Assembly (NCBI RefSeq): GCF_056746865.1
Contig: NZ_CM163382.1
Direction: 5' to 3' (one strand)
Length of the DNA: 64,000 bases
The notes under the pieces were generated by a model. It ran no database searches and was not told where the DNA came from. It saw only the letters and a program-made list of their open reading frames with translations. Within the stretch, counting starts at the first letter, position 1, and each line of letters begins with the position of its first letter. The position numbers and the translations under genes are program-made. Shown piece by piece: positions 25,814 through 48,503 of the stretch.

Positions 25814-25832
25814 GATAATGATAATCATTATT
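25814..25832 (+). promoter_or_regulatory. Fur box in the iucA promoter
   Basis: GATAATGATAATCATTATT matches the Fur consensus GATAATGATAATCATTATC at 18 of 19 positions, about 40 bp upstream of iucA. Confidence 0.85.
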
Positions 25833-28547: not shown

Positions 28548-30289
28548 TGAATCACAAAGACTGGGATTTGGTCAACCGCCGCTTGGTGGCAAAAATGTTG
28601 TCTGAGCTGGAGTATGAGCAGGTTTTCCACGCGGAATCTCAGGGCGATGACCGCTACTGCATTAACCTGCCGGGAGCACAATGGCGCTTCATCGCTGAAC
28701 GTGGTATCTGGGGCTGGCTCTGGATTGATGCTCAAACTCTGCGCTGCGCGGACGAGCCAGTACTGGCTCAGACGCTGCTGATGCAGCTAAAGCAGGTACT
28801 GTCAATGAGCGATGCAACCGTTGCTGAGCATATGCAGGATTTGTATTCCACGCTGCTGGGCGACCTGCAACTGCTGAAAGCCCGTCGCGGGCTGAGCGCC
28901 AGTGACCTGATTAATCTTAGTGCCGACCGCCTGCAATGCCTGCTGAGCGGTCATCCTAAATTCGTTTTTAATAAAGGTCGCCGTGGCTGGGGTAAAGAGG
29001 CGCTGGAACGATATGCGCCAGAGTATGCCAACACCTTTAGACTGCACTGGCTGGCGGTAAAACGTGAACATATGATCTGGCGCTGTGATAACGAGATGGA
29101 TATTCATCAGTTGTTGACGGCCGCAATGGATCCGCAGGAGTTTGCCCGCTTCAGTCAGGTCTGGCAGGAAAACGGACTGGATCATAACTGGCTGCCGCTG
29201 CCTGTACATCCGTGGCAGTGGCAGCAAAAAATCGCCACCGACTTCATCGCTGATTTTGCCGAAGGCAGGATGGTGTCTCTCGGCGAGTTTGGCGACCAGT
29301 GGCTCGCCCAGCAGTCGCTGCGTACCCTGACCAACGCCAGTCGCCGGGGTGGGCTGGATATCAAGCTGCCGCTGACCATCTACAACACCTCATGCTACCG
29401 GGGGATTCCTGGCAGATACATCGCTGCCGGACCACTGGCTTCACGCTGGCTACAACAGGTTTTTGCGACCGACGCTACCCTGGTGCAAAGCGGTGCAGTG
29501 ATCCTTGGTGAACCGGCTGCAGGCTATGTCTCCCATGAAGGCTATGCCGCGCTTGCCCGGGCTCCCTATCGCTACCAGGAAATGCTTGGTGTTATCTGGC
29601 GGGAGAATCCGTGCCGCTGGCTGAAACCGGATGAAAGTCCGGTTCTGATGGCAACACTGATGGAGTGCGACGAAAACGATCAGCCGCTGGCAGGCGCATA
29701 TATAGACCGCTCCGGGCTGGACGCTGAAACCTGGCTTACGCAACTGTTCCGGGTGGTCGTGGTTCCTCTGTATCACCTGCTTTGCCGCTACGGTGTCGCG
29801 CTTATTGCACATGGACAAAATATAACGCTCGCCATGAAAAAGGGGGTTCCACAGCGTGTTCTGCTGAAAGACTTCCAGGGCGATATGCGGCTGGTGAAAG
29901 AAGAGTTCCCCGAAATGGACTCTTTGCCTCAGGAGGTTCGTGATGTTACATCCCGCCTGAGTGCGGACTACTTAATCCATGATTTGCAGACGGGTCACTT
30001 CGTGACAGTACTGCGTTTTATTTCGCCACTGATGGTTCGTCTTGGCGTACCTGAACGGCGATTTTATCAACTGCTGGCAGCAGTGTTGAGTGATTACATG
30101 AAAAAACATCCACAAATGTCAGAGCGTTTTGCGCTTTTCTCACTTTTCAGGCCACAAATCATTCGCGTGGTGCTGAACCCGGTAAAACTGACCTGGCCTG
30201 ATCTGGATGGCGGCAGCCGCATGCTGCCGAATTACCTTGAGGATCTGCAAAATCCGCTGTGGCTGGTAACTCAGGAATATGAATCATGA
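28547..30289 (+). CDS. iucC: Aerobactin synthetase IucC
   Basis: 580-aa IucA/IucC-family ORF; overlapping start/stop with neighbours. Confidence 0.9.
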   Translation: MNHKDWDLVNRRLVAKMLSELEYEQVFHAESQGDDRYCINLPGAQWRFIAERGIWGWLWIDAQTLRCADEPVLAQTLLMQLKQVLSMSDATVAEHMQDLYSTLLGDLQLLKARRGLSASDLINLSADRLQCLLSGHPKFVFNKGRRGWGKEALERYAPEYANTFRLHWLAVKREHMIWRCDNEMDIHQLLTAAMDPQEFARFSQVWQENGLDHNWLPLPVHPWQWQQKIATDFIADFAEGRMVSLGEFGDQWLAQQSLRTLTNASRRGGLDIKLPLTIYNTSCYRGIPGRYIAAGPLASRWLQQVFATDATLVQSGAVILGEPAAGYVSHEGYAALARAPYRYQEMLGVIWRENPCRWLKPDESPVLMATLMECDENDQPLAGAYIDRSGLDAETWLTQLFRVVVVPLYHLLCRYGVALIAHGQNITLAMKKGVPQRVLLKDFQGDMRLVKEEFPEMDSLPQEVRDVTSRLSADYLIHDLQTGHFVTVLRFISPLMVRLGVPERRFYQLLAAVLSDYMKKHPQMSERFALFSLFRPQIIRVVLNPVKLTWPDLDGGSRMLPNYLEDLQNPLWLVTQEYES

Positions 30290-31563
30290 AAAAAAGTGTC
30301 GATTTTATTGGTGTAGGGACAGGGCCATTTAATCTCAGCATTGCTGCGTTGTCACATCAGATCGAAGAACTGGACTGTCTCTTCTTTGATGAACATCCTC
30401 ATTTTTCCTGGCATCCGGGTATGCTGGTACCGGATTGTCATATGCAGACCGTCTTTCTGAAAGATCTGGTCAGTGCTGTTGCACCTACAAATCCCTACAG
30501 CTTTGTTAACTATCTGGTGAAGCACAAAAAGTTCTATCGCTTCCTTACAAGCAGACTACGTACAGTATCCCGTGAAGAGTTTTCTGACTACCTCCGCTGG
30601 GCTGCTGAAGATATGAATAACCTGTATTTCAGTCATACCGTTGAAAACATTGATTTCGATAAAAAACGTCGATTGTTTCTGGTGCAAACCAGCCGGGGAG
30701 AATATTTTGCCCACAATATCTGCCTTGGTACAGGAAAACAACCTTATTTACCACCCTGTGTGAAGCATATGACACAATCCTGTTTCCATGCCAGTGAAAT
30801 GAATCTTCGTCGGCCGGACCTTAGTGAAAAACGGGTAACCGTGGTTGGTGGAGGACAGAGTGGTGCAGACCTGTTCCTTAATGCATTACGCGGGGAATGG
30901 GGAGAAGCGGCGGAAATAAACTGGATCTCCCGGCGGAATAATTTTAACGCACTGGATGAGGCTGCTTTTGCTGATGAGTATTTTACACCTGAATATATTT
31001 CAGGCTTCTCCGGACTGGAGGAAGATATTCGCCATCAGTTACTGGATGAGCAGAAAATGACATCGGATGGCATCACTGCCGATTCTTTACTGACCATTTA
31101 TCGTGAGTTGTACCACCGTTTTGAAGTTCTGAGAAAACCAAGAAATATCCGTCTGCTACCCAGCCGCTCGGTAACAACTCTGGAAAGTAGTGGTCCTGGC
31201 TGGAAGTTGCTGATGGAGCATCATCTGGATCAGGGCAGGGAGAGCCTGGAAAGTGATGTGGTGATTTTCGCCACAGGTTACCGTTCTGCGTTGCCACAAA
31301 TACTTCCCTCACTGATGCCGCTGATCACCATGCACGATAAGAACACCTTTAAAGTGCGTGATGACTTCACTCTGGAATGGAGTGGCCCGAAAGAGAACAA
31401 CATCTTCGTGGTCAACGCCAGTATGCAAACCCATGGCATCGCCGAACCTCAGCTCAGCCTGATGGCATGGAGATCTGCACGTATTCTTAATCGTGTAATG
31501 GGACGTGATTTATTCGATCTCAGTATGCCGCCCGCCCTGATTCAGTGGCGCAGCGGCACCTAG
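30286..31563 (+). CDS. iucD: L-lysine N6-monooxygenase IucD
   Basis: 425-aa ORF with N-terminal FAD-binding motif GVGTGPFN. Confidence 0.9.
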   Translation: MKKSVDFIGVGTGPFNLSIAALSHQIEELDCLFFDEHPHFSWHPGMLVPDCHMQTVFLKDLVSAVAPTNPYSFVNYLVKHKKFYRFLTSRLRTVSREEFSDYLRWAAEDMNNLYFSHTVENIDFDKKRRLFLVQTSRGEYFAHNICLGTGKQPYLPPCVKHMTQSCFHASEMNLRRPDLSEKRVTVVGGGQSGADLFLNALRGEWGEAAEINWISRRNNFNALDEAAFADEYFTPEYISGFSGLEEDIRHQLLDEQKMTSDGITADSLLTIYRELYHRFEVLRKPRNIRLLPSRSVTTLESSGPGWKLLMEHHLDQGRESLESDVVIFATGYRSALPQILPSLMPLITMHDKNTFKVRDDFTLEWSGPKENNIFVVNASMQTHGIAEPQLSLMAWRSARILNRVMGRDLFDLSMPPALIQWRSGT

Positions 31564-31644
31564 GGAAAACGCAGCCGGAGGCTGCTTCTTTAACTCGCTA
31601 CACAGCATCTTTGGGCTGATTTTTTCCGCCCGTGTGGAGGAATA

Positions 31645-36435: not shown

Positions 36436-37314
36436 CTACAGATGTTGCTCTCTGGTTGTTGTACTAGTCGGGAGATCCTGTGGATCGACATTTTCCTTCG
36501 CGTGAGCATTGATGCTGGAAGCGGTAAACGTCAGGATGAATACAACCGTGAATAAGATAACAATCGTTGGTGCTGGTGCGCTGTCTATAAAAAAGGAGAG
36601 CCATACACCAGTCATTGAGACCATTACCGATATACCGAGCGCCAGCAGGAGCGCAATATGAAAGCGTTGCGTCAGGAGTACCGCAATGGCGCCAGGCGCA
36701 ATGAGCAGAGAAATGGAGAGAATGATACCTACCGCTTTCAGCGTCGCCACAATGGTCAGAGAGACCATGCACAGCAGCCCATAATGCAGCCATCTCGTAT
36801 GCAAACCGCTTACCTGCGCCTGTTGATAATCAAAGCTGAACAGCAAAAAATCCCGCCATTTTACGCTAATAACAAGTGTAACCAGCCCGGCAATAATCAC
36901 CGTCTGGATTATATCGCCGATGGTTACCCCGAGCATGTCGCCGAAAAGAATATGGTCAAGATGTACGTCGGGTTTGACTGCAATATACAAGATCAGACCT
37001 GCGGCAAACATGCCAGAAAAAACAATCCCCATCACTGTATCTTGCTTGATTCGGCTGTTGTCTTTCAGGTATCCCGTCGCCACCGCGCAGAATACTCCGG
37101 CGACGAATGCTCCTCCCGCCAGAGGAAAACCCAGTATCCACGCAAGCACGATACCAGGAAAAACCGCATGACTCATCGCGTCTCCCATCAGTGCCCAACC
37201 TTTCAGGACCAGAAAGACCGACAGCAGCGCACAGGGTATGGAAACTACCAGTGAAATCAGCAGTGCGTGACTCATAAAGGTGAACTGCAGTGGCTCCAGT
37301 AATAATGCCATCAT
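36436..37314 (-). CDS. sitD: Mn/Fe ABC transporter permease SitD
   Basis: Multi-TM permease, last gene of sitABCD. Confidence 0.85.
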   Translation of the reverse strand: MMALLLEPLQFTFMSHALLISLVVSIPCALLSVFLVLKGWALMGDAMSHAVFPGIVLAWILGFPLAGGAFVAGVFCAVATGYLKDNSRIKQDTVMGIVFSGMFAAGLILYIAVKPDVHLDHILFGDMLGVTIGDIIQTVIIAGLVTLVISVKWRDFLLFSFDYQQAQVSGLHTRWLHYGLLCMVSLTIVATLKAVGIILSISLLIAPGAIAVLLTQRFHIALLLALGISVMVSMTGVWLSFFIDSAPAPTIVILFTVVFILTFTASSINAHAKENVDPQDLPTSTTTREQHL

Positions 37315-38168
37315 GAGCGATCCTCCAGCACCTTATGCGCACGCTGACGATTTGCCAAAAGCCCATGGGTGGGTGCAAAGACAAATGCTAAAAGAAACAG
37401 CAGTGTCTGCGCCACCACGATGATTCCACCTGTCGCTCCGTCCAGAAAGTAACTGACCCACGCGCCGAGGAAACTGGTTACACTGCCAATAGTTACAGCA
37501 ATCACGAGCAGGCGGGGAAAACGATCGGTTAACAACCATGCTGTTGCGCCAGGGGTCACTACCAGACAGATCACCAGAAAAGCCCCAACCGTTTGCAATG
37601 CTGCAACGGTCGATACCGCCAGCAGTGTGAAGAAGAGGATTTTTAATCTTCCTGGATATAATCCAATAGCACGGGCGTGATTTTCGTCGAAAAAGGTCAC
37701 CATAAGATCTTTCCATTTGAAAAAGAGCACTATGACTGAGACAATGCCAATGATAGTGAGTTGCAGGATATCCGCCGGAGCGATTGCCAGAATATTGCCC
37801 AGGACGATGGTCTGAATATTTACGGATGTCGGGTTTAATGACACCATAAACAGCCCCAGGCCAAAAAAGGACGAGAAGATCAGGCCGATGATGGCATCTT
37901 CTTTTAAGCGAGTGCGTTGGTTAAGAAACAGCATGCTGCCCGCAGCCAGTCCACCGGAAAAGAAGGCCCCCAGAGAAAACGGAAGCCCCAGCATATATGC
38001 CCCCGCAACACCCGGGACGATAGAGTGCGACAGCGCATCGCCAATCAGCGACCAGCCTTTTAGCATCAGATAGCATGACAGGAAAGCGCAGAGACCGCCG
38101 ACCATCGCCGCGACCCACATCGCATTGAGCATATATTCATAGCTGAAGGGTTCCAGTAGCACGTTCAT
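37311..38168 (-). CDS. sitC: Mn/Fe ABC transporter permease SitC
   Basis: 285-aa multi-TM permease; overlapping stops/starts. Confidence 0.85.
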
Positions 38169-38992
38169 CTTTCTTCCCTCTGCACCGCTGATGGTCGATA
38201 AGCCACAAAGGGGCGTTCATCGTCAGTAATAATGCTTTCTTCCGAGCCTTTAAGTGTGACATGGCGTAGTACGCCGCTAAAAGCCAGCTCCAGGTTCTCG
38301 GCTGTAAAAGTGGTGTCTGTCGGCCCGCTTGCCAGGACGGTGCCTTTGACCATGACCGTATAATCGCAAAATGTCGTGACGGATCCGAGATTGTGCGTTG
38401 AGACAAGCATCGTTTTGCCTTCCGCGCGTAACTCCCTCAACAGGCTGATGATTTTGGCTTCGGTTTTCACATCAACGCCGGTAAAAGGTTCATCCAGCAG
38501 GATCACATCACCCTGCTGTGCAATCGCTCTCGCCAGAAAGACGCGTTTCTTTTGTCCACCGGAAAGCTCGCCGATTTGTCGATGGCGAAAATCTACCATA
38601 TCGACACGTTCCAGCGCATCGGTGACAACCTGACGATCCCTCTTATTGGCTATACGCAACATACCCATATGCCCATAGCGGCCCATCATCACCACATCTT
38701 CCACCAGTACAGGAAAGGACCAGTCCACTTCTTCTGACTGCGGGACGTAGGCAATCAGGTTTTTCTGCAGAGCCTGCCGCGTGGGAATACCCAGAACAGA
38801 TATCTTTCCGGTAGTCAGACGCACGAATCCCATAATCGCTTTAAATAACGTCGATTTTCCGGAACCGTTTACCCCAACCAGAGCGGCAATAGATCCGCCT
38901 GGTACTGTGAAGGATGCATCGCGCAGTGCTGTGTGCCCGTTACGCCAGGTGACAGTAACGCCATTAACGACAATACCCGCAGATTGCATCAT
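38165..38992 (-). CDS. sitB: Mn/Fe ABC transporter ATP-binding protein SitB
   Basis: Walker [10 protein letters not shown] and ABC signature LSGGQKKRV. Confidence 0.9.
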
Positions 38993-39906
38993 TACTTCTC
39001 CCTTTTCCCGGCTTTAATTCCCTGCACCAGCGTACTGGTAGTAACCTTCAGAAGGTCGATATACGTAGGTACCGGGCCGTTTTCTGTGCTCAGGGAATCG
39101 ACATAGAGCACACCGCCGTAGTGTGCGCCGGTTTCACGCGCAACCTGACGCGCTGGTTTATCGGAAACCGTACTCTCACTAAATACCGCTGGGATATTAT
39201 TTTTCTTCACTATATCAACCACTTTACGTACCTGCTGGGGTGTTCCTTGTTGATCGGCATTTATCGGCCACAGATAAAGCTCTTTTAGCCCCAAATCGCG
39301 TGCGAGATAAGAAAAAGCCCCTTCACTGGTGACCATCCATCTTTTATTCTCAGGGAGTTCAGCAATCTGCTTACGCAGGGGGGCAAGGGTTTGGGTAATC
39401 TTGGCTTTATAAGTATCGGCATTACGTTGGTATGTTTTTGCATTTGCCGGATCGTATTTTATCAACGCATCACGAATATTATCGACGTAAATCAAAGCAT
39501 TATCTGGTGACATCCAGGCATGAGGGTTAGGTTTTCCCTCGTAGGGGCCTTCGGTGATCCCTACTGGCGTCACACCCGAAGAGACAATCACTTCTGGAAC
39601 ACCATTGAGATGCTGGTAAAAGCGCTGGAACCACAATTCCAGATTCATTCCATTGGCGAGAATCAGTTGTGCCCCCTGCGCACGTTTAATATCGCCAGGG
39701 GTAGGCTGATACTCATGAATTTCCGCACCGGGCTTGGTTATGGATGAGACTTCTGCAACATCTCCAGCCACGTTTTTGGCCATATCTGCGATGATGGTAA
39801 ATGTTGTAATGACCTTGAATTTTTCAGTTGCACTCGCCTGAAATGCGATCGAGCAGGTGAGGGCGAGGAACCCCAAGAGCATGGTTAATTTTTTTATTGA
39901 GTGCAT
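38992..39906 (-). CDS. sitA: Mn/Fe ABC transporter periplasmic binding protein SitA
   Basis: 304-aa ORF with signal peptide; first gene of the operon. Confidence 0.9.
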
Positions 39907-39938
39907 AATTCAGTACCTATAGTGAGCAAAATTAGAAC

Positions 39939-39960
39939 AAACATAGCAACGGCTATGTTT
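39939..39960 (-). promoter_or_regulatory. MntR-box-like palindrome upstream of sitA
   Basis: AAACATAGC-aacg-GCTATGTTT inverted repeat about 30 bp upstream of the sitA start. Confidence 0.6.
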
Positions 39961-39982
39961 TATAGCATAATCTATACAAATG

Positions 39983-40000
39983 CAAATGGTTATCATTAAT
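39983..40000 (-). promoter_or_regulatory. Fur-box-like sequence upstream of sitA
   Basis: AAATGGTTATCATTAATG has partial match to the Fur consensus; weaker than the iucA box. Confidence 0.4.
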
Positions 40001-40239
40001 GTATTTGTTTGTAAGTGATGAGATGCTCTTCCTCTCCTTCACGACAGCCTTCAATTACGCCATGATGGATAAACTGTAACCATAAAAGGAGAAATGTACT
40101 GAACACATCCTGCCCTGTTAAGAGAGGTGCACTGTGATGGATGAAGGGTAAAATTGTCTGCTGTGGAGCCTCTCAGATTTCCGGCATCATAGTGCCCAAT
40201 ACGGGATGCAAAAGCGCCCTCAGACTGGCGACTCCACAA

Positions 40240-41287
40240 ATGAAATATACACCGGTTGGCGTTGATATCGCAAAGTATCTGATTCAGGTTCACTTCATCA
40301 ATGAGTACACGGGCGAAGTGGTGGACAAGCAGCTACGTAGCAAGGATTTTCTGACGTTCTTCAGCAACCGGGAACCCTGTCTGATAGGTATGGAGGCTTG
40401 TGGAGGCTCCCAACATTGGGCGAGGGAACTGGAAAAAACTGGGACACAAAGTTCGGCTGTTGCAAGCTCGCTTCGTTAAAGCATTCGTCATGGGCAACAA
40501 AAATGATGTGATGGATGCGCGTGCTATCTGGATGGCGGTACAGCAGCCCAGTAAAGATATCGCTGTTAAAACGGAAGAGAAGCAGTCAGTTCTGGTCCTG
40601 CACCGTTCGCGCAGACAACTGGTGAAGTTCAGAACCTCGCATATTAATACCCTTGGCACGCTCCTCGAGTTTGGTGAAATCCTCCACAAAGATTGGACAG
40701 CGATGGACAGAAAGCTACCGACAGCCCTAGAGCGAATGAAGACGAACCTGCCGCCGTATCTCATCACTGTGCTTGAATACCAGTACAACAGACTGAGTGA
40801 GCTGGGCATGCAGATAGATGGCCTTGATAAACAGATTAACAGCGTGGCACGGCAGAGCGAAAACTGTAAGCGCCTAATGGAAATCCCCGGTGTGGGGCCG
40901 TTAATCGCTACGGCGGTGGTCGCCACCATGGGCGAGGCCTCAGCATTTAAATCCGGACGTGAGTTTGACGCTTATGTCTGTCTGGTGCCGAAGCAGACGG
41001 GGTCCGCTGGGAAGGTTCGCATGCTGGGGATAAGCAAACGTGGGGATACCTACCACCGGACATTATTTATCCATGGGGCAAGGGCGGCAGCATTGCTTAC
41101 CAAAGAACCCGGCCCATGGATCACGGAGCTGAAAAAACGGCAGCCGACAGGTGTAATGCCGATCAGTTTAGGAGCAGTTGACCGATCCAGGGTCTGTTTA
41201 AGAATCCTGAAACGCTCACTCGTTTCCGGATTTTTGTGCACAGAAAAACCCCAGCTAGGCTGGGGGCCGGAAAGCTTTCAGCTTTGA
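40240..41287 (+). pseudogene. IS110-family transposase, frameshifted
   Basis: N-terminal MKYTPVGVDIAKY... in ORF 40141-40479 continues in ORF 40400-41287 after a frame change; the C-terminal part is IS110-like. Confidence 0.6.
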
Positions 41288-43267: not shown

Positions 43268-43792
43268 ATGAAACGTAAACTTATTGCCTTTGTGATTCTG
43301 GCTACATCATCCTGTGGATATGCAGCCACCAAAGATGTAACAATGAATCTTGTTGATAGTGACGGAAAAGAGCGAAATATTGGTAAAATAACCATCCAGA
43401 AGACACCCTACGGGCTGCTGTTCACCCCTGATCTTCACTCCTTACCCGCCGGCATTCATGGTTTTCATGTACATGAAAACGCAAGTTGTGCTCCTGCCCT
43501 GAAAGATGGAAAAACTGTCGCTGCTTTATCTGCAGGTGGTCACTTTGACCCGGAAAAAACAGGGAAGCATCTCGGTCCATGGTCTCCTGATGGCCACCTA
43601 GGTGATCTCCCTGCGCTTTATGTCACTCATGACGGAAAAGCAACCTACCCGGTGCTTGCGCCAAGACTATCTGAATTAAAGGAGCTCGATGGCCGTTCGC
43701 TAATGCTCCACGCAGGAGGTGATAATCATGATGACCATCCTGAACCTCTAGGTGGCGGTGGTGCAAGAATTGCCTGTGGTATCATCCCATAA
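43268..43792 (+). CDS. sodC: Periplasmic Cu,Zn superoxide dismutase SodC
   Basis: Signal peptide plus Cu/Zn-binding histidine cluster (GFHVHE, GGHFDP) and C-terminal [12 protein letters not shown]. Confidence 0.85.
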
Positions 43793-46149: not shown

Positions 46150-46482
46150 GCCGTATCCCGTATTACAGGCTTATCACGTGTGACAGTCAGTCTCTGGGTG
46201 TGTTCAGGAACATTCCCTGAAATGTCAACCCGGCCTCCAGAGCGAGGACTTCTGGCCCCATGGAGGGAGTGGTTAAAAGAGCAACGAGAAAGTGGTAACT
46301 TCGGCGCGTGGCTGCAAGGATGGCAGCTGATGCTGCGGCTATATGTGAGGCAATCGGCAGTCGCTGGAATAATGGGGGTTGTCGAAAGTCATGTAAATAG
46401 ACTAAAAATGCTGAAAGGCCAGATGTATGGTCGAGCCGGATTTGAACTACTCAGACAGAGGGTCATGAGTCCACTGGCATGA
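46150..46482 (+). pseudogene. Duplicate of the ISL3-like transposase C-terminal fragment seen at 23102-23446
   Basis: Identical peptide ...SRITGLSRVTVSLWVCSGTFPEMSTRPPERG...VNRLKMLKGQMYGRAGFELLRQRVMSPLA. Confidence 0.5.
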
Positions 46483-46536
46483 AAATCTCCATCCAGGTTG
46501 CGTAAGAGCCACTTTTCATCCGTCGTCGATATCTGG

Positions 46537-46690
46537 GATAGCCATAGTGAAATAAAAAGCTGTCTGAATTAAATTATTTTGCACATATATTTTAATCCTG
46601 CACTGAATTAAGAATGGGTAATCAGTGACTGCTTGGACGGTCACTTTTAAGAGAAGGCATTAACAGAGAATGGTAAACAGGCTCAATATA
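46537..46690 (+). repeat. Uninterrupted copy of the sequence that flanks both sides of the IS256-family element at 21012-22329
   Basis: 46537-46602 matches 20936-21011 and 46603-46690 matches 22330-22420 with few mismatches. Confidence 0.7.
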
Positions 46691-47143
46691 TTATGTTGTT
46701 GGCACTACAGATGAATGATGGGATGATATTTTCCAATCCTTTCCATCCCACTCATAAGCGAAACTATAGCGTGCTGAAACTTGTTTTTTATCTTCAAAAG
46801 TAAACGTGTAATTCCCTGTATCAAGAGCCATATTGCATCCAATGCGAATAGTTCTGAAGTTTATTTCTCCAACAGGTTTTTTTTTCAAAAAATGCTCAAA
46901 ATAGTCAACTCTTTCTGCATCTGTAATCCTAATTTTTTTTGATACTGTGGGCAGTAAGATCGCATCACTTAAATAGTTATCAGCAACCTTCTTGGCATCA
47001 CCTGTTTTTAATGATTCATTCCAGCGATCGAATAACCTTTCAATGTCTTTACTATCTACCCGAATACACTTAACATTATCTACGTCACTTGCCCACGACG
47101 CTCCAGAAAACAGACACAGAATTAAAATATTTATTTTTTTCAT
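46691..47143 (-). CDS. Secreted hypothetical protein, possibly NTF2/SnoaL-like fold; AT-rich gene
   Basis: Signal peptide MKKINILILCLFSGASWA; 150 aa; fold guess is from general sequence character only. Confidence 0.4.
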   Translation of the reverse strand: MKKINILILCLFSGASWASDVDNVKCIRVDSKDIERLFDRWNESLKTGDAKKVADNYLSDAILLPTVSKKIRITDAERVDYFEHFLKKKPVGEINFRTIRIGCNMALDTGNYTFTFEDKKQVSARYSFAYEWDGKDWKISSHHSSVVPTT

Positions 47144-47385
47144 AACTCCTCCTGATCAGCCTGAAACTTTTTTAAAGTTTAATCATATTAATACAGTGCA
47201 ACTATTTGATAGTAAAAACGATGTTCTCTATTTTGTTAATAGATACTTCCTATTGTGTATATATTATGAGATTATTAAGAATAATACTCTCTGGGTCGTA
47301 GAGACAGGGTATAAGTCACAGGCTGGTGTGGTTCGGATGTTCTTGCCCCCTCAATATCAGACTGCTATTGTATCTTAAGTTAACG

Positions 47386-47739
47386 TTATCCGCTGACGTC
47401 GATATTCCCGTGGTGAGAGATAACCTAACGCACTATGCGGATGGTTTTCATTGTAATGCTCGAACGCCTCTGCAAGGTTATGCAATGCCGTTATTACATT
47501 CAGTTTCGGCATGAACGCGATGTAGTCTTCATTCACGTTTTCACGAACCTTTCTGCCATTCTATTGCTCTGAGGGCTACTGACTGCCGTCGTGCAGGGCT
47601 CCAGATTCAACTCTCTGGCGAATTGCCGTGTTTCATGAGCCGTATAAGCCGAACCGTTATCCGTCCGCCACTGGATTGCTCGTTCCGGTCCTTTATCGCC
47701 AAAGCGTTTTTCTATCGCTCCTAACATCACATCCTGCAC
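47386..47739 (-). pseudogene. IS3-family OrfB (integrase core) C-terminal fragment
   Basis: [45 protein letters not shown] and downstream [14 protein letters not shown]. Confidence 0.55.
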
Positions 47740-48503
47740 TGTCGGCTTTATCGTAACCTCCCGTACTGGTCACGGGCAGACTGTTCATCATGTTAAACCC
47801 AGCCGCTGTCAGATCATGCACCGGCCGGATGGCGGGCTGACCTGCCCCGCCGCGCTGCTGCCCGCCAATCCATTTCTTACCTTCCTTCCCGGTGGCCTGA
47901 CGTCCGGCCTCGTCCCCTTTCACCGCATCACCGTCACCGCTGTTCACCACCTTCTTGTACTCTTCCAGCATCGCTGGCCTGCGTCCATTTGCTGCGATCA
48001 GAAAAGTCCATCATCCGTTTTGCCATGTTCTGGCAGTTCAGTTACGCCTTGTCGAAAGCCACATTCGCCTGCAGCACACCGTTGGTGATCATGTCGTACA
48101 GGCCGGGGTTGGCACGCTGTATCACCATCGCCGGCAGACTGGCAGCGGCGCCGGTCGCCCCCTAAATCACATCCCCCATCAGATTTTTAAAGCCGTCGGT
48201 CAATCCGTTAAGATGATTACCCACCGTGGTCTTCAGGTCAAAGTTGCCGCACATCAGATCGCTGCTCCAGCCCAGGTCCATACCCAGCTTCTGCATGTTG
48301 CTGCGCGTGGCCAACTGTGAGATCACCGAGCCGCCACCCAGCGTATAGAACAGTTTGTCGGATACGGCGCCATCCACGGATTTCCCGTAACCGAACGTGC
48401 TGTCATTCAGTTTCGGCAGGGAAAGAAGATCAGCCATCGCCGGAATACTGCAGTACAGCATCACACTCAGTGCCACCATACCTGTTTTCATCTTCATCAT
48501 CAT
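47740..48503 (-). pseudogene. Exported protein of a conjugative-element operon (weak TraH-like guess), interrupted by in-frame TAG at 48159-48161 and truncated by the IS3 fragment
   Basis: Signal peptide MMMKMKTGMVALSVMLYCSIPAMA; reading frame continues past TAG (GATGAAASLPAMVIQRANPGLYDMITNGVLQANVAFDKA); family assignment is weak. Confidence 0.3.

Follow-up and report, generated by a model that had tools for sequence, protein, structure and literature searches.

Sites matching MntR and Fur operators at the predicted core promoter of sitABCD in an Escherichia coli genomic island

The closest described counterparts of the promoter discussed here are those of sitABCD in Salmonella and Shigella and that of mntH in Escherichia coli K-12. 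The Salmonella enterica sitABCD promoter is reportedly the subject of Ikeda et al. 2005 (J Bacteriol 187:912) and the Shigella flexneri sit promoter that of Runyen-Janecky et al. 2006, and Patzer and Hantke are said to have found in 2001 that K-12 mntH is dually repressed by Fe-Fur and Mn-MntR. Reviews state that Mn-MntR represses both mntH and sitABCD, and that Fur does so too (PMC3852070, PMC9315381, PMC8264917). For sitABCD, dual Fur/MntR repression is experimentally established in Salmonella and reported in Shigella, by the primary work that PMC3852070 cites. In Salmonella, a sitA-lacZ fusion responds to deletion of fur and to deletion of mntR, and sigma S becomes dispensable for wild-type expression only if both genes are deleted (PMC8970401). 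A further point of reference is Bacillus subtilis MntR, for which cryo-EM (Shi et al. 2025) revealed cooperative arrays on 18-bp sites lying 1 bp apart; the MntR sites of E. coli mntS have a spacing identical to that of the B. subtilis arrays (PMC11882963).

Because dual repression of sitABCD by Fur and MntR is published, finding MntR and Fur sites in front of an E. coli sitA is already known. It is correct, and it is ordinary. Since reviews and the Salmonella fusions alike state repression by MntR and Fur, the interpretation that an initial annotation of this DNA had put forward, dual manganese and iron control as reported for sit operons, is the established one, and what we see at the locus fits it (PMC3852070, PMC9315381, PMC8970401). 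The modest addition made here is a pairing of MntR sites at a fixed spacing of 19 bp, and even the second of these sites, B, may already be described in Ikeda 2005 or in RegPrecise.

The locus sits in a window of 64,000 nucleotides, by which we mean the whole stretch of DNA that was analyzed. Its sequence occurs unchanged in the chromosome of E. coli ECCNB12-2 (NZ_CP033635.1), a chicken isolate from China, and it holds a genomic island with the aerobactin genes iucABCD-iutA, the sitABCD operon, sodC and many broken insertion sequences. The features that matter for the argument are these, from the distal end of the operon to the DNA upstream of it.

36436-37314, minus strand: sitD, whole, 94% identical to a reference allele over 281 amino acids
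37311-38168, minus strand: sitC, whole
38165-38992, minus strand: sitB, whole, scoring 586.6 bits against the NF011630 equivalog model (cutoff 393)
36436-38992, minus strand: the sitB-sitC-sitD block as a unit, the remainder of the operon after sitA
38992-39906, minus strand: sitA, with its ATG at 39906; annotated as SitA (Pfam PF01297), the periplasmic Mn/Fe-binding protein of an ABC importer
39939-39960, minus strand: candidate MntR-type operator A, a perfect AAACATAGC-N4-GCTATGTTT, at about -8 to +14 of the predicted promoter
39959-39967, minus strand: predicted extended -10 element TGcTATAAA (hexamer 39964-39959), the best consensus score within 39907-40080
39960-39977, minus strand: candidate MntR-type operator B, degenerate, overlapping the predicted spacer and -10 element
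39981-39986, minus strand: predicted -35 element TTTGCA, 4/6 matches, with a 16-bp spacer to the -10 element
39982-40000, minus strand: Fur-like box ATTAATGATAACCATTTGC, 14/19 against GATAATGATAATCATTATC, overlapping the predicted -35 element
40001-40083, no strand assigned: segment separating the sit promoter from the IS110-like remnant; the resemblance to all other sit alleles breaks off at its proximal edge
40084-41287: IS110-family transposase pseudogene adjoining the sit promoter; homology to the insertion sequence begins at 40084-40092

All four sit genes have whole reading frames, and the RefSeq annotation attaches no pseudogene flag to any of them. SitA shares 97% identity with the main SitA cluster of E. 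coli; both SitA and SitC match metal ABC families, with scores below the curated cutoffs. Taken together, the four whole genes should encode a complete Mn/Fe ABC importer of the SitABCD/YfeABCD type. Of 5426 complete E. coli genomes, 2355 have a sit promoter, be it chromosomal or on a plasmid, and 5421 have mntR; the allele carried by the window occurs in 53 records of complete genomes. The 94 bases that precede the start codon, read on the sitA strand, are ATTAATGATAACCATTTGCATTTGTATAGATTATGCTATAAAACATAGCCGTTGCTATGTTTGTTCTAATTTTGCTCACTATAGGTACTGAATT-ATG, and it is with these bases that most of what follows is concerned.

The palindrome nearest to sitA had been called near-perfect. It is in fact perfect. 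Its arms lie at 39939-39947 (AAACATAGC) and 39952-39960 (GCTATGTTT) on either side of the spacer AACG, with all 18 of the 18 specified bases matched, and it ends 33 bp upstream of the ATG, overlapping the best consensus -10 element and the predicted +1. When up to three mismatches to AAACATAGC-N4-GCTATGTTT are allowed, this remains the single match in the 64 kb, where dinucleotide shuffles lead one to expect 0.03. The half-sites and the 4-bp length of the spacer are identical to those of the MntR box of K-12 mntH (AAACATAGCaaagGCTATGTTT), which bears out the MntR-type identity first proposed for the palindrome. The likeness to mntH goes further, in that both promoters have a Fur-like box upstream of the MntR box and both elements near the start codon. 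The two differ in that mntH has one full palindrome and sit two, and in what they serve, an NRAMP transporter at mntH and an ABC importer at sit. A scan of K-12 for the core ATAGC-N4-GCTAT finds sites in the promoter regions of mntH, mntS and mntP, the latter two of which we take to be the remaining members of the MntR regulon beside mntH.

Operator A also behaves as a conserved element. It is invariant among the chromosomal E. coli alleles compared, while their sequence farther upstream varies, and it stays at the same place before sitA whether uspF, IS1 or IS110 lies upstream. The sitA homologues of other Enterobacterales have MntR-type palindromes upstream that match 13 to 18 of the 18 specified bases; at alphaproteobacterial, Pseudomonas and other non-enterobacterial sitA loci the best score of the motif is just 9-12/18. 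A literature search on the motif string returned unrelated matches only. By motif, operator A qualifies as a putative operator for the enterobacterial, DtxR-family MntR. As a separate observation, the alphaproteobacterial sitA loci (L023-L084, at about 1330-1470) lack ATAGC-N4-GCTAT, and many of them have a GCAAATGCAAATCATTTGC-like palindrome upstream. Such palindromes are consistent with the Mur/Fur-type manganese control of rhizobial sitABCD, which PMC3212961 mentions by way of the papers it cites.

The transcription start of sitA is predicted near 39952. With the promoter placed in this way, the Fur box would lie over the -35 element, site B over the spacer and the -10 element, and site A over the start. 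Operators over the -35 element, the -10 element and the start are the usual layout for repressors that block RNA polymerase. The distance between the -35 and -10 elements is 15 to 17 bp across sit alleles. A standard promoter scan returns just an unrelated 9/12 match, at 40121-40093; it does not call the predicted sit promoter because the last base of the -10 element is A.

A palindrome in front of a gene can be read in another way, as something that acts in RNA: a hairpin within the leader of sitA, an intrinsic terminator or an attenuator, and not an operator for a protein. The scan for such structures does flag the sequence as terminator-like, with a 9-bp stem, a 4-nt loop and then GTTCTAATTT, and the stem is present in the minimum-free-energy fold of the leader. 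That fold is not unusual, though (z = -1.6; 14 of 200 shuffled sequences fold equally well), the stem has just three G-C pairs among its nine, and other bases break up the T-run. An Rfam search of the leader gave no match, and a review describes sit as being without a riboswitch-like leader (PMC9315381). The predicted start, moreover, falls inside the palindrome, so the full stem would go untranscribed. What is conserved from genus to genus is the sequence ATAGC/GCTAT with a free spacer, which is more than mere pairing, and the same motif stands at the mntH, mntS and mntP promoter regions of K-12, as expected of a protein site; its constant position before sitA under three different upstream neighbors points the same way. 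We regard an RNA role as very improbable and treat the palindrome as a candidate MntR operator.

There is a second palindrome, which the initial annotation overlooked (it also left unstated that sitA is on the minus strand). The core of operator B, ATAGC-ATAA-TCTAT, occupies 39962-39975 on the plus strand and agrees at 9 of 10 core positions; against the full 22-bp consensus it scores just 9/18. A core score of 9/10 is reached by only three sites in the 64 kb, and A and B are two of them. Their centers, at 39949.5 and 39968.5, are 19 bp apart with B upstream of A, which is the same as two 18-bp sites lying 1 bp apart.

This arrangement is widespread. We aligned 24 sit promoters, six of them E. 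coli alleles and 18 from loci of other named genera (Enterobacter, Lelliottia, Shimwellia, Pluralibacter, Citrobacter, a Klebsiella-named isolate, Cedecea, Erwinia and Pantoea); Salmonella was absent from the best 80 loci of the genome scan and from the best 120 protein matches. The 24 align without gaps as a Fur-like box followed by ATAGC-N4-GCTAT-N5-ATAGC-N4-GCTAT, and the 19-bp spacing of A and B is fixed in every one of them, across about 18 Enterobacterales lineages. What the sequences show is that the window has the sites, that these agree with known operators, and that their arrangement, in order and in spacing, is kept across genera.

The same 19-bp pairing is present in the K-12 mntS promoter. 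Adjacent MntR sites with a 19-bp period are thus common to sit, to mntS (rybA) and to the mneP/mneS arrays of B. subtilis (PMC11882963), and at mntS both sites overlap the promoter, as is predicted for sit. The B. subtilis arrays are unlike sit in having four weak sites that activate efflux genes, whereas the two sites at sit would repress an importer. Measured against the definition of a cooperative MntR array in PMC11882963, the A/B pair has the right spacing, and the E. coli protein keeps only some of the interface residues. In our alignment, Tyr22 of B. subtilis MntR, the key residue for dimer-dimer cooperativity in that protein (PMC11882963), corresponds to Glu54 of E. coli MntR, and Glu55 to Ile87; Asp27 and Gly59 are conserved, as Asp59 and Gly91. 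With Tyr22 aligned to Glu54, cooperative binding by E. coli MntR is not assured. That the sit promoter across the Enterobacterales is a two-dimer MntR operator rather than a single-site one is a tentative proposal that we put forward as a possibility and no more firmly than that. Were two dimers to bind cooperatively, sit would respond more steeply to manganese than mntH does, and its response could vary from allele to allele. The paired sites in any case link sit regulation to a recently solved cooperative mode of MntR binding.

Differences between alleles are not hard to find at these two sites. The plasmid allele L088 (p14EC007b) has a mismatched site A (ATAGT) and a perfect site B core; the chromosomal alleles (L002, L085-L087) have a perfect site A and a degenerate B (ATAGG, ATAGA or ATTGC). 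A further plasmid allele, L003 (P707_1), was set beside the chromosomal ones in the same comparison. In E. coli, then, which of the two sites is strong and which is weak appears to be reversed between chromosomal and ColV-type plasmid alleles, with L088 as the sole record inspected among the approximately 980 in its 80-90% identity class.

Farther upstream comes the separate AT-rich, Fur-like box that had been reported for this promoter. It is there, and the interval first given for the region, 39939-40000, brackets palindrome A and the Fur box exactly. At a score of at least 14/19 against GATAATGATAATCATTATC, just six sites occur among the 64,000 positions of the window, so that one would turn up in the 100 bp before sitA with a probability of about 1%; among background 51-bp windows, fewer than 0.1% reach 14/19. 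The alignment of sit promoters adds to this. In 22 of the 24 the best Fur match keeps one register and one orientation and stops 5-10 nt short of palindrome B; 17 of the 24 score at least 13/19, a level attained by 0.4% of the background 51-bp windows taken from these loci.

The box can also be connected to an experiment. For Salmonella sitA the Fur site has been predicted as CAAATAAGAATTATTTTC (PMC3212961 supplement), and this sequence is contained in the aligned Citrobacter sequences in the same register as the window box. In Salmonella, sitA is derepressed 53.8-fold in a fur mutant (PMC3212961). By its alignment with CAAATAAGAATTATTTTC, the box of the window is therefore tied to a promoter whose control by Fur is experimental. 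The window and the Salmonella/Shigella systems share the operon, both repressors and, through the Citrobacter sequences, the register of the Fur box. They differ in that the window carries an E. coli island allele with another Fur-box sequence, and in that unrelated DNA and an IS110 remnant have taken the place of what lay upstream of its box. A consensus match above background, together with a conserved position, marks 39982-40000 as a putative Fur box.

Could both motifs simply be chance matches in AT-rich intergenic DNA, with no regulatory role? Short AT-rich consensus sequences do find matches often, and the six window sites at 14/19 illustrate as much for Fur. The expectation for the palindrome is just 0.03 matches, however; the palindrome is invariant in chromosomal E. 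coli alleles despite the varying sequence farther upstream; and both motifs hold their positions across about 18 lineages. As far as sequence analysis goes, these conservation data refute a coincidence, to which we give next to no credence. The region before sitA is instead, very probably, the core promoter and operator of sitABCD, repressed by the two metal sensors MntR and Fur.

How intact is it? The initial annotation had called the regulatory region intact despite the debris of insertion sequences around it, and this stands for the core and for the whole frames of sitA to sitD. It does not stand for the DNA beyond. Set against any other E. coli sit allele, the window loses its homology at about 39999-40003, where the Fur box has its distal edge (box positions 1-2), and it is without about 150 bp of upstream sequence that chromosomal and plasmid sit alleles have in common. 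The Fur box itself, at 14/19, is the weakest among the E. coli alleles compared: the other chromosomal alleles reach 17/19 and those on plasmids 15/19. The T run that separates it from palindrome B is also shorter, by 1 bp, than that of the other chromosomal alleles.

Loss of homology within the first two positions of the box, the lower score and the shortened T run are what one would bring forward for the reading that the window allele has kept MntR control and that its Fur control is weakened or lost, the box being a degraded remnant at a rearrangement junction. Other findings speak against it. The change in the GATAAT core, to a C at its last base (GATAAC), occurs also in the sit promoters of Enterobacter and Lelliottia, at 14-15/19, and the predicted Salmonella site reaches just 13/19 (scored on the Citrobacter sequences), yet sitA is strongly repressed by Fur there. 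The center of the window box, TGATAAC-C-ATTTGCA, still has 11 of 14 matches to the 7-1-7 Fur motif by manual count, and the allele persists in its 53 complete genome records. We consider weakened or lost Fur control unlikely, and it is the sole rival worth testing. For the window allele we infer a Fur box that works, if perhaps with less strength than elsewhere, beside its MntR sites. The core has been retained, we would say; full Fur control and overall intactness are matters that sequence cannot prove.

Several smaller observations belong to this junction. The 150 bp or so upstream of the Fur box are homologous between a chromosomal and a plasmid allele (L002 4202-4400 and L003 4202-4400), despite their different neighbor genes. 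A 72-bp piece of the window, 40017-40088, resembles unannotated plasmid DNA. In the IS110 remnant the N terminus of the transposase lies near 40255, leaving a non-coding left end of about 170 nt. The non-coding left end of IS110 elements is where the guide (bridge) RNA is located; the Rfam match in this left end is weak and not significant (E = 0.087). An OxyR-like motif scores 11/20 in the E. coli sit upstream regions, which is background, and 13/20 at K-12 mntH, another point on which sit and mntH differ. With the sit upstream regions at background, there is no evidence of an OxyR site having been lost with the missing upstream DNA.

Insertion sequences have come closer still in another strain. 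In E. coli AF4 (L089, NZ_OZ547143.1, locus at about 276-475), an IS5 sits at CTAG directly upstream of site B and removes the Fur box and the -35 element, a naturally disrupted sit promoter. The sit operon of AF4 might be driven from within IS5.

The regulation that we propose for the sit promoter of the window is as follows. When manganese is sufficient, Mn-MntR dimers would bind palindrome A over the predicted transcription start, and a second MntR dimer would probably bind the weaker palindrome B, over the -10 element. When iron is sufficient, Fe-Fur would bind the box overlapping the -35 element. Either repressor would block RNA polymerase at the sit promoter, so the operon would be on only when the metals are scarce.

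All this has little significance beyond annotation. The island of a chicken E. coli carries a sit operon that is probably still responsive to metal limitation, and a retained response is of some relevance, given the part that SitABCD plays in the virulence of avian and extraintestinal E. coli according to those papers that PMC3852070 cites on the point.

The same island offers a second Fur operator for comparison. A Fur box, GATAATGATAATCATTATT, scores 18/19 at 25814-25832 of the window, 43 nt upstream of the iucA start (25875); it belongs to the six window sites that score 14/19 or better and is presumably the classical operator of the aerobactin promoter. Like the sit box, it lies upstream of an uptake operon for iron; it differs in being near consensus, whereas the sit box, at 14/19, is combined with MntR sites. 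Downstream, iucD (30286-31619) is annotated as frameshifted in the RefSeq record, so either this strain may be impaired in making aerobactin or the assembly may contain a mistake. Amid the fragments of insertion sequences in the island lie a gene for a sodC-family superoxide dismutase (43268-43792) and a pseudogene for a group II intron reverse transcriptase (46365-47873). Divergent from iucA, a gene for an MFS transporter starts at about 25739.
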